From: an uncultured Desulfospira sp.
Lineage (GTDB): Bacteria > Desulfobacterota > Desulfobacteria > Desulfobacterales > Desulfobacteraceae
Length of the DNA: 64,000 bases
Direction: 5' to 3'
Assembly: GCA_963663165.1 (NCBI GenBank)
Contig: OY760175.1
Coordinates: 4,640,001 to 4,704,000 of the forward strand
A program made the position numbers. This document shows, one piece after another, positions 27,001 to 33,000 of the stretch. Position 1 is the first letter of the stretch. Each line of letters starts with the position of its first letter.

Positions 27001-30000
27001 TTCCGGTATCTGTTCTGGTAAATATAGCCCTGGAAGATCCGGTCATAACCGAGCGGGCCCAGGTAACCCTTGAACAGGCCCAGGAGCAAATTAAAAAGGC
27101 AAGAGAGCATTTTAACCGCCAGGTATCCCGGTTTGAAAAGGGAGATGACCTGCCGCCGGGCGTCCTCAAGCTCATCAAGATCAGTGTGGCCATGGAAAGG
27201 GTGCTTTCCGTGGGAGATAAAATGGCCGGCCGTCACGGAAATAAAGGGGTTGTGTCCAGAATATTGAGAACCGAAGACCTGCCTTACTTTGCCGACGGCC
27301 GCCCCGTTGACATGGTGCTCAATCCCTTAGGGGTTCCTTCCCGGATGAATGTCGGTCAGATTCTGGAGATTCATCTTGGGGCGGCAGCCCATAATCTGGG
27401 CCAGCAGATTGATGACCTGCTTGACGAAATGAAACTGGACCAGCTCAGGGAAAAGGTAAAAAGCATATTTACCCTTACCAAAAAACAGCGTGTTGACGGG
27501 ATTGAAGACGCCCTGGGAGACCGGATCGACCAGATGTCGGAACAGGAACTCATTGAATTTTCAGCATTATACCGAAACGGTGTCCATACCGCCACCCCGG
27601 TGTTTGACGGTGCCACGGAAGAAGAAATAAAAGATTTGCTCGAAGAGTCGGGAACTGATCGTTCCGGGCAGTCCATTTTGTATGACGGAAGAACCGGCGA
27701 GCCTTTTGATAAACCCGTTACCGTCGGGACCATGTACATGCTCAAACTTCACCATCTGGTGGATGACAAACTCCATGCCAGATCCATCGGCCCCTACTCT
27801 CTGGTTACTCAGCAGCCCCTTGGCGGCAAGGCTCAGTTCGGCGGCCAGAGGCTGGGAGAAATGGAAGTCTGGGCCATGGAAGCATACGGGGCCGCCCACG
27901 CACTCCAGGAATTTTTAACGGTAAAATCCGATGACATGACCGGAAGAACCCGGATGTATGAAAAAATTGTTAAAGGCCAGAATGTTCTGGAGCCTGGGAT
28001 GCCTGAGTCCTTCAGGGTATTGATGAAGGAACTCAACAGTCTGGGATTGGATATGAAACTGATTGAAGGCGATAAATAAGGAGAAGAATATTGGATAATA
28101 TATATGATTTCTTCGCTAAACCAAAAGATCCCAAGGTTTATCAGGGCGTTCAAATCAGCCTTGCATCTTCCGACCAGATCCGGGAATGGTCCCACGGTGA
28201 AATAAAAAAACCCGAAACCATCAATTACAGAACATTCAAGCCGGAAAGAGACGGCCTGTTTTGCGCCAAAGTCTTCGGTCCCACCAAAGACTATGAGTGC
28301 AACTGCGGTAAATACAAACGGATGAAGCACCGGGGCGTTGTGTGCGAAAAGTGCGGGGTTGAGGTCATTCAGTCCAAGGTGCGGCGGGAGCGGATGGCCC
28401 ACATTGAGCTTGCCTCTCCAGTGTCCCACATCTGGTTTCTTAAAAGCCTGCCAAGCAAAATTGGAAACGTGCTTGACCTGACCCTTAAAAACCTTGAAAA
28501 GGTTCTGTACTTTGATTCCTATATTGTGATTGACCCCAAAGACTCGGGGCTCAAAAAAATGCAGCTCCTGTCTGACGATCAGTATTATGAAGCTATAGAG
28601 GCATTTGGAGAAGAAGGATTTGATGCCGGCATCGGTGCTGAGGCTATCTTAAGGCTGTTGGAGGAAATCAACCTTCAGGAAGTTCATGATGAACTCAGAG
28701 AAGAGATTTCCATAACCAAGTCCGTTGCCAAACAGCAGAAAATGGCCAAACGGCTCAAGGTCATTGATGCATTCCTGAATTCAGGGATTGAACCTTCCCG
28801 GATGATTTTAACCGCCTGCCCCATTCTTCCCCCGGACTTAAGGCCTCTGGTTCCACTTGAAGGGGGCCGGTTTGCCACGTCAGATCTCAACGATCTGTAC
28901 CGCCGGGTGTTAAACCGGAACAACCGGTTAAAACGGTTGGTGGACCTGGATGCCCCGGACATTATTGTCAGGAATGAAAAACGAATGCTTCAAGAATCCG
29001 TGGACGTGCTGTTTGATAACGGGCGCCATGGACGGGTCGTTACGGGCACCAACAAACGGCCTCTGAAATCTTTGAGTGATACCCTGAAAGGCAAACAGGG
29101 CCGTTTCCGTCAGAACCTGTTGGGAAAACGTGTGGATTATTCCGGACGTACGGTTATTACGGTAGGCTCTGAGTTAAGGCTTCATCAGTGCGGGATTCCA
29201 AAGAAAATGGCCCTTGAGCTGTTTAAGCCGTTTATTTACAATTATCTGGAACAAAAAGGGCTGGTGTCCACCGTTAAAAGTGCTAAAAAAATGGTGGAAA
29301 GAGAGGAAACCGAGGTATGGGATGCTTTGGAATCCGTTGTAAAAGAATACCCGGTCATGCTCAACCGGGCGCCGACCCTTCACCGTCTGGGTTTCCAGGC
29401 ATTTGAGCCGGTCCTGATTGAGGGAAAGGCCATTCAGCTTCATCCCCTGGTATGCCCGGCATTCAACGCCGATTTTGACGGGGACCAGATGGCGGTTCAT
29501 GTGCCCCTTTCGCTGGAATCCCAGCTCGAAGCACGGATCATGATGCTGTCTACCAACAACATCCTCTCTCCCGCCAATGGGCAGCCCATCATTGTTCCCA
29601 CCCAGGATATTGTTCTGGGGATTTATTATATGACCCGGGCCATGGCCGGCCGGAAAGGGGAGGGAATCAGCTTTTCAAGCATTGAAGAGGTCCGGTATGC
29701 CTTTGACGCCGGGGCTCTGGATCTTCATGCAAAAATAAAGGTCCGGATCGATGATGAGACCTATGACACCACCACGGGCCGTATTCTGCTGTGGGAAACC
29801 ATCCCCGGGGATACCCTGCTCTCCTTGAGCAGAATTCGGACAGAAACTTTTGAAGAGTGCGAGCAGGCTTTAGAAGCACTTAAAGCCGGTGAAGATTTTG
29901 AAGATGTATTGAAAAAATATTCGGATGATGAAATCAAAAAGACCCGGGGAGAAACCGGTGTTCTCAGCCGAAAAGAGTTTAAGAATATTTTTCAGCTGTC

Positions 30001-33000
30001 TGACGTTGTGGTTGAACAGCTTTTCAGTCTTAAGAAGGGCCAGTTCACCGATGTCCGTGTGGTGGGGGATAAATATACCATTTTCAAAGTGGATGAAAGA
30101 AAGACCACCCTTCCCTTTACCCTGGTCAATAAACTCATGGACAAGTCTTCAACGGTTAAACTCATTGACTATGCCTACCGGAACATCGGGCTTAAAGAAA
30201 CCGTTATTCTGTCCGACCGGCTCAAAGATATCGGTTACCAGTATTCTACCCTGGGCGGGCTTTCCATTTGTGTGGACGACATGATTATCCCGGATGAAAA
30301 ATGGGATATTATTGCCAGGGCAGAACAAAATATTAACGACATCAAAAACCAGTATTCTGAAGGTTTGATTACCCAGGGAGAAAAGTACAACAAGGTGGTG
30401 GACATCTGGGCCCAGGCAACGGACGATATTGCCAATGCCATGATGGAAGTTATGAAAAATCCCGTGGGGGCAGCCGATGCTGAAACCGCTGAAATGATGA
30501 ACGCAGTTTACGTCATGGCGGATTCCGGGGCCAGGGGCTCCAAAGATCAGATGCGTCAGCTGGCTGGGATGCGCGGGCTTATGGCCAAGCCTTCCGGTGA
30601 GATCATTGAAAACCCCATTACGGCCTGCTTCCGTGAAGGATTGTCTGTGCTTCAGTACTTTATTTCCACCCATGGTGCCCGGAAAGGCCTGGCGGATACG
30701 GCGTTGAAAACGGCCAACTCCGGGTATCTGACCCGGCGTCTGGCTGATGTCGGCCAGGACTGCACCATTGTTGAACATGATTGCGGGACTATTAACGGCA
30801 TAGAGGTGGAAGCCCTGTATGAGGGGGGAGAAATCATTCAGACCCTGGGTGAAAGAATCCTGGGCAGGGTGACCCAGGAAGATATCCGGGACCCTTATTC
30901 AGATGAACATATTGTGGCAGCGGATACGGAACTGACCGAAGCCCACGTGGCACGGATTGAGGAGGCCGGTGTTCAAAAGGTAAAAATTCGTTCGGTGTTA
31001 ACCTGCAACTCCAAACACGGGGTTTGCTCCAGGTGCTACGGCCGGGACCTGGCCCACGGGATCACCGTGGAAATCGGCCAGGCCATTGGCATCGTGGCGG
31101 CCCAGTCCATTGGCGAGCCCGGGACCCAGCTGACCATGAGAACCTTCCACATCGGCGGCACCGCATCCAGAAAGGTTGAAGTTGCTGAAATAAAGGCCCG
31201 GGTGGGCGGCATTCTCAAGTATAATGAGGACATCCAGACCGTTACCTCTGCGGAAAACGAGGTGATTGTCATGAACCGGAAAGGTGGCGGTATCACCATC
31301 GTGGGGGCAGAAGGACGGGAGCGGGCCAAGGAAACTATCATCTACGGTGCCACCCTTCATCTCAAAAACGGCCAGGCCATTGAGCCCGGGGATATCATTG
31401 CCACCTGGGATCCGTTTACCACACCTATTATCACCGAGGTTTCAGGCCGGGTGAAGCTGGTAGACATTGAAGTCGGCAGTACGGTTCAAGAACAGATAGA
31501 CCCGGTGACCGGGAAGGTCAGTCGTACAATCATCGAAGGAAAAGAATCTGAGGTCCGGCCAAGAATTACCATTAAAGACAAAGACGGCAAAGCGGTAAAG
31601 CTTCCGGGCTCTAAGACCAATGCCCAGTACTACCTGCCGGTGAACGCCATCCTGACCGTTGAAGAGGATGACGCCATCATGGCCGGCGATGTTATTGCCA
31701 AACTGCCCCGGGCCACCACCAAGACAAAGGATATTACCGGTGGTCTTCCCCGTGTGGCAGAGCTTTTTGAGGTCAGAAAACCCAAAGAACCCGGCATGCT
31801 CACGGAAATCGACGGGTATGTTTCCTTGTCCAAGGGAACCAAAGGACGCCAGAAGGTTACCGTTACGCCGACCGATGTGGGGGATAAAAAAGAGTATTCG
31901 GTGCCCAAGGGCGCCCATGTGACGGTTTATGAAGGCGACTATGTCAAGGCGGGCGACGCTCTGATCGCCGGCGCCGCCAACCCCCAGGATATTATGAATA
32001 TCAAGGGCGAGGTGGCCCTTGCGAAGTATCTGGTGGACGAAGTTCAGGAGGTCTACCGGTTGCAGGGGGTTCGGATCAATGACAAACACATAGAAGTTGT
32101 CATCCGGCAGATGATGCGCCGGGTTAAGGTCACCAGCCCCGGAGACACGGAATTTATTCCGGATGAGCAGGTTGACCGGGTTATTTTTGAAGAAAGAAAC
32201 CGTGAGGTTGCCATGAAGGGCGGTGAGCCGGCCAAGGGGGAACCATTAATCCTTGGGATTACAAAGGCTTCTCTTTCAACAGACAGTTTTCTGTCGGCTG
32301 CATCATTTCAGGAAACCACAAAGGTGTTGACTCTGGCGGCCATTGAAGGAAAATACGACAGCCTCAAGGGATTAAAGGAAAACGTGGTGATGGGCCGGTT
32401 GATTCCAGCCGGTACCGGATTCCCCGGTTACCACAACGTCGAGGTGGAAGCCGGGGAAGTACAGGAAGTATAAAAAATTTAAAATGCTTGACTTATAAAA
32501 AAACAGAATGTAAAATTAAACATTTTGTCGTGTATGACAATGCATTATCTTGATAAGGAGCGTTGGGAAGACTATGCCGACCATAAATCAGTTGGTTAGA
32601 AAAAGCAGGAAGAAAGCGGAAAAAAAGATTAGTACACCGGCCTTGAAAGGCGGTCCCCAGAAGAGAGGGGTATGTACCAGGGTATATACATCAACGCCGA
32701 AAAAACCAAACTCTGCATTGAGAAAAGTCGCCAGGGTTCGGTTGACGACCGGTATGGAAGTGGCTGCATATATCCCCGGCATGGGGCATAATCTTCAGGA
32801 GCACTCGGTTGTATTGGTCAGGGGCGGCAGGGTAAAGGACCTTCCCGGTGTCCGCTATCATATCGTCAGGGGGGCATTGGATACCCTCGGTGTAGATGAT
32901 AGAAGACAGGGACGTTCTAAATACGGGGCCAAGAGACCCAAATAAACGGGACTCAAAAGGTTTACAATTTACACTATTTGGTGGACATGACAGATGGCAG

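Follow-up and report, generated by a model that had tools for sequence, protein, structure and literature searches.

The RNA polymerase beta' subunit encoded in the window examined here, a stretch of 64,000 nucleotides from an uncultured Desulfospira sp., carries a lineage-specific insertion that consists of a complete 99-residue domain of parvulin fold. On the beta' gene tree this insertion was gained once within the Desulfobacterales, after two basal families had split off, and was then vertically inherited and lost at least four times. The domain is tentatively read as a peptide-binding module on the surface of RNA polymerase, non-catalytic or at best weakly catalytic, an interpretation to which we would give slightly less than an even chance. 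The gene concerned, rpoC (28091..32473, + strand), is an open reading frame of 1460 aa with a TTG start, the product of which matches the NCBIfam model TIGR02386 with 1722 bits and solved beta' chains at E=0, with Rpb1 domains 1-5 all detected by Pfam. It lies directly downstream of rpoB (23907..28079, + strand; TIGR02013, 1827 bits), and the surrounding gene order of rplA, rplJ, rpoB, rpoC, rpsG and tuf is ordinary.

The boundaries of the insert were set by comparison with insert-less relatives, which places it at aa ~573-671 (29807..30103, + strand), its parvulin fold being supported by Pfam, phmmer, profile, AF2 and Foldseek results. A preliminary description had put it at about aa 575-680; its presence was borne out, but the C-terminal end proved to be a few residues off in an alignment of 123 sequences. 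On the N-terminal side, a conserved beta' segment (aa 561-572; 29771..29806, + strand), the final Pro of which precedes the insert, is kept in each of the 123 beta' fragments aligned, whether these carry the insert or not, and on the C-terminal side conserved beta' sequence resumes in the alignment at aa 673-681 (30107..30133, + strand). The stretch between these anchors spans 121 aa in the window as opposed to 22 aa in most outgroups of the same alignment; the net insert is 99 aa, lies in frame within the Rpb1_3 region of beta', and constitutes an extra segment between universally conserved parts of the subunit. Compared with solved beta' chains, aa 558-671 of the rpoC product replace 28 residues of Pseudomonas beta', and the insert is missing from all solved beta' chains matched. 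In the profile alignment, 100 profile positions fall between two adjacent residues of the Pseudomonas and E. coli subunits, and the insertion falls in a single loop that separates beta' regions D and E, at approximately K585/G586 of E. coli.

In a Pfam scan of the rpoC product, parvulin models are nested between two Rpb1_3 stretches, in agreement with the earlier placement of a parvulin domain inside the Rpb1 domain 3 region. Both Rotamase_2 (PF13145; aa 591-676) and Rotamase (PF00639; aa 583-668) score above their cut-offs (29.6 bits versus 27, and 24.6 bits versus 21.7, respectively), while Rotamase_3, at 21.2 bits, falls under its cut-off of 22.5. With phmmer the insert matches Pin1, PrsA and Par14, and the insert profile matches PrsA (1zk6) over its full length at 6.5e-15, with both His matched, as well as SurA (1.3e-12, the P1 domain giving a better match than SurA's other parvulin domain), Par14 (4e-7), Par10 (6e-7), PpiD (1e-5) and Pin1 (2e-5). 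An AF2 model of aa 540-720, made with an alignment of 81 sequences, has a mean pLDDT of 90.4 (10-residue block means of 84-97 across the insert) and predicts the four-stranded antiparallel sheet packed by helices that is typical of parvulins. The predicted order of elements is beta-alpha3-beta-alpha2-beta2, with one extra helix relative to the parvulin order of beta-alpha3-beta-alpha-beta2 (in the listed numbering, E36-45, H48-59, H64-71, H74-78, E82-86, H88-95, H99-107, E117-119 and E122-133). Foldseek returned 43 matches in the PDB at E<=1e-3, and each of the matches listed is a parvulin domain or a protein that contains one, including PrsA 1zk6 (TM 0.80, rmsd 2.6 A, 93 columns) and Par14 3ui4 (TM 0.75, rmsd 2.5 A); the PpiD parvulin domain, 2kgj, is found among both the profile and the Foldseek matches. 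The parvulin fold given in the preliminary description was thus reproduced. Other builds were considered and rejected: an intein, self-splicing or mobile insert, because Hint/intein and homing-endonuclease families are absent from the 15 Pfam families at E<=1 and the parvulin fold of the AF2 model accounts for the whole insert, and a HABAS/SBHM or BEAN/BBM2 build, because the matches listed from the fold search at E<=1e-3 are all parvulins.

The insert is confined to one clade. A 150-aa query comprising the insert and its flanks matched 191 of the 201 genomes of the order, and ten genomes in six families of the order possess rpoC without the insert. Named records that carry it belong to Desulfobacter, Desulfobacula, Desulfotignum, Desulfamplus, Desulfobacterium, Desulfocicer, Desulfonema and Desulfosudis. 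No insert was found in rpoC outside the order among 374 Desulfobacterota genomes with a matching rpoC (387 searched), where the top matches (E>=4e-39) fall far short of any that cover the insert and all of those listed stop at the insertion point; this extends to a larger sample the earlier statement that other Desulfobacterota are without it. In a beta' tree computed from 1015 columns with the insert excluded (FastTree, LG+gamma; a single gene, with some weak internal nodes of 0.2-0.5), one clade with support of 1.00 contains every insert-bearing sequence, consistent with vertical inheritance. The insert-less families f82 and f8 branch below this clade, whereas the insert-less G192, G020, f70 and G045 are nested within it and have 26-46 residues left in the loop compared with the ancestral 22; in G192 the domain has been cleanly excised, with both linkers of the sister sequences still there. 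Given the two basal families and at least four nested losses, the insert does not serve as the clean marker of the Desulfobacterales that it had been taken for.

Active-site positions were compared over 93 sampled insert-bearing sequences from 73 families of the order. The first active-site His position of parvulins, in strand beta1, is occupied in the window by Arg581 (codon 29831..29833, + strand), which aligns to the PrsA His, and the second, in the last strand, by Thr663 (codon 30077..30079, + strand), aligned on the 'G-aromatic-H-I' strand of PrsA and SurA; the preliminary description had named S/L and T/S/D/N/F at these positions. Neither His is present in any of the nine sequences sampled from the window's own family, the Desulfobacteraceae, or in any of a wider set of 31 Desulfobacteraceae and closely related sequences, in which the first position is R throughout and the second is T (20), N (7), S (2) or M (2). 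Across the order, however, the first column holds H in 64, R in 13 and Q in 6 of the 93 inserts, the second H in 68, Y in 8, N in 6 and T in 3, and both His are retained in 58. At the level of families, both are found in every sampled sequence of 47 of the 73, while 22 have substituted the first or the second with the domain still present. The claim that the catalytic His are replaced therefore stands for the window and the Desulfobacteraceae but not for the order at large, and the non-enzymatic reading attached to it, although in keeping with the loss of both in the window, cannot be deduced from these residues for the whole order. The position of Cys113 in Pin1 corresponds, in a HMMER alignment to the C113D mutant chain 2rud, to Asp613 (codon 29927..29929, + strand), in a column that holds S in 47, A in 10, D in 9 and G in 9 of 93 inserts. 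Two residues past this column, 60 of the 93 inserts carry a conserved Asp, which 49 of the 58 inserts with both His have as well. Because loop length varies among parvulins, the equivalence of the Asp613 column to Cys113 is uncertain.

It is conceivable, if rather unlikely, that these residues reflect an active prolyl isomerase tethered to RNA polymerase, at least in the lineages with both His, the window's family then being derived and inactive; its substrate proline would lie in a transcription factor, in RNA polymerase itself or in a nascent protein near the polymerase. According to PMC7353009, active-site and substrate-site residues of E. coli PpiC are required for binding of its clients, including NusG, which would accord with such an activity, as would the conserved pocket hydrophobics. 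The full-length profile match to the active PrsA PPIase domain and the frequency of the His pair, mostly accompanied by the downstream Asp, point the same way, but the Cys/Asp position is predominantly Ser and seldom Asp. Further, since the His are replaced in 22 of 73 families that have kept the domain, catalysis, if present, would not be what keeps it. SurA P1, moreover, is inactive despite both His.

The reading of the insert as a peptide-binding module is favoured by the segment at aa 620-634 (29948..29992, + strand), which comprises a Gly-x-x-Gly loop and a helix that carries Phe630 and Phe634. In the register taken from the SurA P1 alignment, a hydrophobic proline pocket would be formed in the window by Thr622/Gly623, Phe630 and Phe634, the Pin1 counterparts of which we take to be L122, M130 and F134. 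The groove columns hold G in 86, F in 77 and F in 80 of the 93 inserts, and the Thr622 column I, L, V or T. In the family without His, no other part of the insert is conserved as well as this pocket segment (at least 90% over 31 sequences), which favours a docking module over an enzyme, and the absence of both His makes catalysis least likely there. These Phe and Gly-loop residues also belong to the core of the fold, and folding alone may explain their conservation. We propose that a partner, possibly a transcription factor or some other component of the transcription machinery, may be held through a proline-containing segment by the groove made of the Gly-x-x-Gly loop, Phe630 and Phe634. Docking of this kind would resemble that of the SurA P1 and PpiD parvulin domains, which are inactive and act as binding or chaperone modules. 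The conservation of the groove while catalytic residues drift (first His 64, second His 68 and Ser 47 of 93) agrees with docking, whereas the 58 inserts with both His would fit retained catalysis equally well. At least four independent losses imply that the domain is dispensable to cells, which counts against a docking role.

Those losses would be expected of a passenger domain that binds no ligand, inserted by chance into a permissive loop on the surface and either harmless or a structural brace for the beta' surface. Such an origin is improbable on balance, albeit with an appreciable chance; the following speaks in its favour. The cyanobacterial and plastid split of rpoC1 and rpoC2 falls at the same loop, although it is a chain break without an added domain: the start of rpoC2 models and of solved beta'2 chains falls within ~0-6 residues of the insert's C-side, that of the rpoC2_cyan model at aa 674-678 of the rpoC product, and residues 5-12 of cyanobacterial beta'2 chains align to profile position 141. 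PMC10895346 likewise has the rpoC1/rpoC2 junction precede conserved region E. That cyanobacteria tolerate a break here argues for an exposed, permissive site, and the loop accepts other indels as well, reaching 35-36 residues instead of 22 in the neighbouring lineages G510 and G436, while some insert copies bear extra nested segments. The insert also diverges at the protein level ~3-4 times as much as its flanks, with a mean column identity of 30% in the insert-only alignment versus 45% when the flanks are included. Against a passenger stand its intact frame in all 93 sampled sequences and its foldability across 73 families, together with a conservation that is focused on the ligand-groove segment rather than even. 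Within the window's family, non-synonymous divergence of the insert is 0.12-0.23 while synonymous sites are saturated (>1.4), so that no reliable dN/dS can be given. Nevertheless, non-synonymous change far below synonymous change and an open frame across 73 families suggest, at the level of sequence, that the insert is maintained by selection.

A cis-acting role, in which the domain, much like a chaperone, would assist the 1460-residue beta' in folding or in joining beta and omega, appears quite improbable. The insert's top matches come from chaperones, namely the parvulin domains found in PrsA, SurA and PpiD, and among the parvulin matches examined in the genome there is no small protein of PpiC type, those outside rpoC lying in frames of 651, 320 and 248 aa. 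RNA polymerase subunits are also described, in PMC7353009, as aggregating in E. coli that lack all six cytoplasmic PPIases. However, sister lineages and the four loss lineages assemble RNA polymerase without the domain, and nothing ties it specifically to assembly.

The insert has counterparts both among parvulins and among polymerase insertions. It has its fold and Pfam families in common with PrsA, SurA P1 and P2, PpiD, Par10/PpiC, Par14 and Pin1, as well as the Gly loop and two pocket hydrophobics, and most copies in the order retain both His. It differs from them in ~6 added residues that form a short extra helix past the pocket helix, in the mostly Ser Cys/Asp position and, in the window, in the replacement of the His pair by Arg and Thr. 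Moreover, PrsA, SurA and PpiD are secreted or periplasmic chaperone modules and Par10, Par14 and Pin1 are free proteins, whereas the insert is spliced into a cytoplasmic enzyme. Pin1/Ess1 and the CTD of RNA polymerase II likewise couple a parvulin to the largest subunit, but by analogy only, with no homology of arrangement: Pin1 and Ess1 exist as proteins of their own, which a WW domain brings to phospho-Ser-Pro repeats of the CTD, and bacterial beta' is not known to have a CTD. Among beta' insertions, SI3/beta'In6 in the E. coli trigger loop and beta'In2 of Thermus are likewise in-frame, independently folding domains, and the rpoC insert resembles other lineage-specific insertions in being limited to one lineage and vertically inherited. 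Alvarez-Carreno et al. (2024; PMC11515920), in the text of their survey, describe inserts of HABAS (sandwich-barrel hybrid), BEAN or sLC type, and neither that text nor one supplement mentions parvulin, PPIase, rotamase or Desulfo. In the same text, none of the seven listed insertion sites is named as the loop in question; 'the middle of beta'-bD4' comes closest, and the insert would lie at the C-terminal edge of bD4 if the Xanthobacter numbering (bD4 518-571) carries over. No description of a parvulin-type insert in RNA polymerases was found in the literature covered, a scope to which Lane & Darst (2010) does not belong. A cytoplasmic parvulin with transcription-related clients is known in E. 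coli PpiC (Par10), a free and catalytically active protein with no described fusion to RNA polymerase, which co-purifies, as stated in PMC7353009, with NusG, Rho, SuhB and also RpoA, and these clients provide a lead to possible partners of the insert.

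The rpoC gene of the window is an open frame of 1460 codons with a TTG start (28091-32473, + strand), and it is matched by NCBIfam TIGR02386 (1722 bits), by Pfam Rpb1 domains 1-5 and by solved beta' chains (E=0). It lies in an ordinary rplA-rplJ-rpoB-rpoC-rpsG-tuf cluster, and genome-wide searches with insert-spanning fragments recovered a single copy. Downstream, tuf (33509-34702) comes directly after rpsG (32994-33461), with no fusA between them across 32994-34702, in contrast to the classical str operon. Elsewhere on the contig (C1), outside the window, the omega-subunit family PF01192 has two separate matches (C1:4960089-4960241, - strand, in a frame of 116 aa, and C1:2189014-2189166, - strand, in a frame of 98 aa), and the genome may thus encode two rpoZ paralogues. 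Inside the Rpb1_3 region of the rpoC product, Pfam places Rotamase_2 (29.6 bits, cut-off 27, aa 591-676) and Rotamase (24.6 bits, cut-off 21.7, aa 583-668), with Rotamase_3 slightly below its cut-off; an intein was rejected upon the same scan. Compared with the PDB by sequence alone, excised aa 551-700 recovered Pin1, PrsA, Par14 and a borrelial parvulin (best E 1e-4). Residues 558-671 stand where Pseudomonas beta' has 28 residues. Of the 123 beta' fragments aligned, 93 carry the insert, 10 from the Desulfobacterales lack it and 20 come from other families of the Desulfobacterota; the distance between the conserved beta' segments flanking the insert is 121 residues in the window vs 22 in most outgroups, which leaves a net insert of 99 residues at about aa 573-671 (29807-30103, + strand).

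The preliminary description had assigned this segment a parvulin fold, which was reproduced here by structure prediction, structural search and profile comparison. AlphaFold2, run on aa 540-720 with an 81-sequence alignment, gave a model of mean pLDDT 90.4 and pTM 0.69, with means over 10-residue blocks of 84-97 across the insert. The elements follow in the order beta, three helices, beta, two helices and two strands, and the insert as modelled has the topology of a parvulin plus a short additional helix. In a Foldseek search of the PDB, 43 matches reached E<=1e-3, and among the matches listed all are parvulin domains or parvulin-containing proteins, including PrsA 1zk6 (TM 0.80, rmsd 2.6 A), Par14 3ui4 (TM 0.75), PpiD 2kgj, BB0108 8sot, Pin1, SurA and NmPin. 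A profile built from the insert alone likewise matched PrsA 1zk6 (6.5e-15), SurA (1.3e-12, domain P1 better than P2), Par14 (4e-7), Par10 (6e-7), PpiD (1e-5) and Pin1 (2e-5).

The site of insertion can be placed closely. Positions 34 and 135 of the profile of the 81-sequence alignment map to adjacent residues in solved beta' chains, position 134 to E. coli residue 586 and positions 2-33 to Thermus 856-887, and this mapping puts the insertion point at about E. coli K585/G586. The E. coli beta' residues of ppGpp site 1 (K615, I619, D622 and Y626) presumably follow some 30 residues downstream in sequence. The loop that bears the insert is also where the NCBIfam models of cyanobacterial RpoC1 and RpoC2 respectively stop and start (rpoC1_cyan aligns as far as aa 584, rpoC2_cyan begins at aa 674-678), and solved cyanobacterial beta'2 chains start 0-6 residues past the insertion point; one study has the beta'1/beta'2 junction preceding conserved region E (Qayyum et al., 2024; PMC10895346). 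In two lineages from outside the order (L143 of genome G510, family f165, and L146 of G436, f90) the loop is 35-36 residues long rather than 22 and matches no parvulin. The loop is a hot spot for indels. As it withstands a chain break and small indels and, in the Desulfobacterales, houses a whole domain, it is probably solvent-exposed; and because it accommodates the insert in this genome and the split between two chains in cyanobacteria, it would offer a permissive site for engineered beta' insertions.

Within the order, a 150-aa query with 22 and 28 residues of flank finds a match in 191 of 201 genomes (144 of 149 of good quality), and the matches listed sit in frames of about 1460-1530 aa. 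The class-level sample contained genomes of the window's order alone, and comparison with the outside rests on the phylum sample, in which a 100-aa insert-only query matches 178 of 401 genomes; among 150 matches listed, 11 fall in frames of 1460-1511 aa, every one from the window's order, and the other 139 in frames of 260-766 aa, with 97 further weak matches besides. In that sample, each of the order's 14 genomes matches a 281-aa insert-spanning query across the insert (E<=4e-60). In other Desulfobacterota no insert was found in rpoC, 374 of 387 genomes matching this query (best E>=4e-39) and 13 giving no match; nearly all of these matches come as two separate pieces and, among those listed, each ends at query residue 92-105, which is the insertion point. 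The preliminary description had taken the insert for a marker of the Desulfobacterales, and this stands for the 374 matching genomes of other Desulfobacterota but not for the order throughout, since ten of its genomes have an insert-less rpoC: all three of family f70, all three of f82, one each of f8, f21 and f45, and G192, a genome of f24, whose relatives bear the insert. Eight genomes of the order give no rpoC match whatsoever and are read as assembly gaps. Irregular genes were also seen: an rpoC match in open frames of 2433 aa (G164:C159:1000-1449) and 2297 aa (G333:C6:48025-48309), which may be rpoB-rpoC read-through or fusions, and an insert-bearing rpoC that is broken up, its frames being 236 and 198 aa long and its match containing a TGA (L040/L043, G001:C12:26652-27499), which may reflect either misassembly or a gene that is damaged.

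The systematic genome search was made within the Desulfobacterota; sequence and profile comparison found no insert in solved beta' chains from many phyla. A search for homologous proteins extended to close relatives only, with 68 beta' proteins, those named being mostly Desulfobacteraceae, with a few under the broader submitter labels Proteobacteria, Pseudomonadota or Deltaproteobacteria. The best 80 named loci, from a scan whose alignment included flanks and is therefore biased to the insert-bearing clade, are labelled Desulfobacter, Desulfobacula, Desulfotignum, Desulfamplus, Desulfobacterium, Desulfocicer, Desulfonema limicola, Desulfosudis oleivorans, an Olavius symbiont and unnamed Desulfobacterales, along with a few metagenome-assembled genomes (MAGs) under Gammaproteobacteria, Nitrospinaceae and Pseudomonadota, taken to be loose labels. 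Two contigs with an insert-bearing rpoC, L195 (labelled Nitrospinaceae) and L162 (labelled Gammaproteobacteria), share 46% and 78% identity with the window at full coverage and look like mislabelled or mis-binned Desulfobacterales. In a profile search of a representative library, each of the seven single-stretch top matches examined is a fragment of insert-bearing beta', both multi-stretch matches examined are tandem-parvulin proteins, and the others listed are mostly multi-domain parvulin proteins; the best 150 include no full-length beta', so that this search is uninformative on insert-bearing beta' elsewhere.

The history of the insert was read from a beta' tree (FastTree, LG+gamma, 1015 columns, insert columns removed), a single-gene tree in which some inner nodes are weak (0.2-0.5) and MAGs may hold mis-binned contigs. 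Families f82 and f8, whose loop has the ancestral 22 residues, lie at the base of the order, and all insert-bearing sequences fall within one clade (support 1.00). Nested in that clade are the insert-less G192 (sister to G023, 0.93), G020 of f21, f70, and G045 of f45 (sister to f10/f14/f33, 0.99). These four lineages keep 26-46 loop residues, and in G192 both the N- and C-linkers of its sisters are retained with the domain cleanly excised. The simplest history would be one gain followed by at least four losses. As for the source of the domain, the free-standing proteins of the phylum sample that come nearest to it are PrsA/SurA-like and 300-320 aa long (E 7e-12 with the window insert, about 1e-16 with the profile); they are no closer than generic parvulins, so that no donor is named. 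A genome-wide parvulin search of the window's genome gave other matches in frames of 651, 320 and 248 aa and found no small PpiC-type gene. At 0.42-0.46, the insert has the lowest GC content within rpoC (range 0.42-0.59), but it does not stand out enough to argue for a recent foreign origin.

Within the window's family dS exceeds 1.4 in every pair, and because synonymous sites are saturated no reliable dN/dS ratio can be given. Non-synonymous divergence, with four loci excluded whose flank indels inflated flank dN, is 0.12-0.23 in the insert vs 0.05-0.07 in 480 flanking codons; the insert thus evolves 3-4 times faster than the core, yet far under the synonymous rate. Columns average 30% identity in the insert-only alignment vs 45% in the alignment with flanks. 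It is possible, if doubtful, that a domain with these rates is a passenger or a brace that binds no ligand; the conservation of its groove, considered next, bears on the same question.

Both active-site histidines of PrsA align to two columns of the insert-only profile, where the window has Arg581 and Thr663. Among 93 inserts from 73 families, the first column holds H in 64, R in 13, Q in 6 and other residues in 10, and the second H in 68, Y in 8, N in 6, T in 3 and other residues in 8; both histidines are present in 58 inserts, one in 16 and none in 19. The two occur together in every sampled sequence of 47 of the 73 families and in no sampled sequence of 22. That both catalytic histidines are replaced, as initially described, is therefore correct for the window and its family (neither in 9 of 9 sampled sequences) but not for the insert at large. 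In a wider set of 31, made up of the window and 30 named relatives (Desulfobacter, Desulfobacula, Desulfotignum, Desulfamplus, Desulfobacterium and unnamed Desulfobacteraceae), the first position is Arg throughout (31 of 31) and the second is T (20), N (7), S (2) or M (2). The position of Pin1 Cys113 is S in 47 of the 93, A in 10, D in 9 and G in 9 (Asp613 in the window, per the HMMER alignment), and the column two residues on is D in 60 (Ile in the window). In the pocket, whose register was taken from the SurA P1 alignment, the glycine of the Gly loop is kept in 86 of the 93 and the two hydrophobic positions are F in 77 and 80; in parvulins the proline ring sits at these positions. No part of the insert is better conserved in the His-less family than the pocket segment, which reaches at least 90% along a run of 13 positions, two of them excepted. 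The histidines have thus been lost repeatedly and independently while the groove was retained. Length variants also occur. In L011 (G160, family f1) a Ser/Lys-rich low-complexity expansion replaces the insert loop that normally bears the Cys/Asp position (loop 135 aa), and in L068 (G054) and matches in G599, G632 and G651 (f54) about 27 extra residues lie within the helical part (loop 148 aa vs 121; rpoC frames 1500-1504 aa).

Because the groove is conserved and the chemistry is not, we tentatively favour the insert as a binding module. An active isomerase tethered to the polymerase, in those lineages that keep both histidines, seems unlikely. For a binding module, the closest functional precedents are found in SurA and PpiD, which have inactive parvulin domains. 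According to one report (PMC7353009), NusG, Rho, SuhB and RpoA co-purify with PpiC, the free parvulin of E. coli, and transcription proteins can therefore be parvulin clients. That the domain instead aids assembly in cis is very improbable.

The insert is real, and it is a lineage-specific RNA polymerase insert with a fold that we have not found reported for such inserts. Pfam's automatic annotation already puts PF13145 or PF00639 on some insert-bearing beta' proteins, so that the parvulin match is visible in databases, with no description found. The literature searched, including terms within PMC13114784, yielded no paper on a parvulin in beta', most subscription journals lying outside its coverage. 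As far as their accessible text goes, a survey of RNA polymerase inserts places HABAS, BEAN and sLC inserts at seven beta' sites, the terms "parvulin" and "Desulfo" being absent from that text and one supplement (Alvarez-Carreno et al., 2024; PMC11515920), and a search of a further paper for lineage-specific inserts and Deltaproteobacteria found Myxococcus inserts only (PMC8655204).

Most of the Desulfobacterales, an order of sulfate reducers of ecological importance, have retained the insert, and should it recruit a factor or isomerise a proline, it would represent a new mode of bacterial transcription regulation. Test systems are at hand: among the named records are a type strain in culture, Desulfobacter curvatus DSM 3379, and species that have been cultured (Desulfobacter postgatei, Desulfonema limicola and Desulfosudis oleivorans), and natural comparisons are provided by the clean deletion of G192 and by a His-less series to set beside the His-His one. 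The lineage-specific inserts of bacterial RNA polymerase described in the literature consulted draw on a small set of folds (sandwich-barrel hybrid/HABAS and BEAN), and where such inserts have been studied (SI3) they tune pausing and factor access. The parvulin insert is a different kind of module, because it brings a ready-made groove for proline-containing peptides. A bolder proposal, which we rate as decidedly unlikely, is that in most Desulfobacterales the insert is a working prolyl isomerase or proline-switch reader fixed to the polymerase core, acting on a proline of a transcription factor, omega, sigma or the polymerase itself and so gating a transcription step, with the Arg/Thr form of the Desulfobacteraceae derived and binding-only. 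Such an insert would be a bacterial counterpart of Pin1/Ess1 acting on Pol II, but one built into the enzyme.
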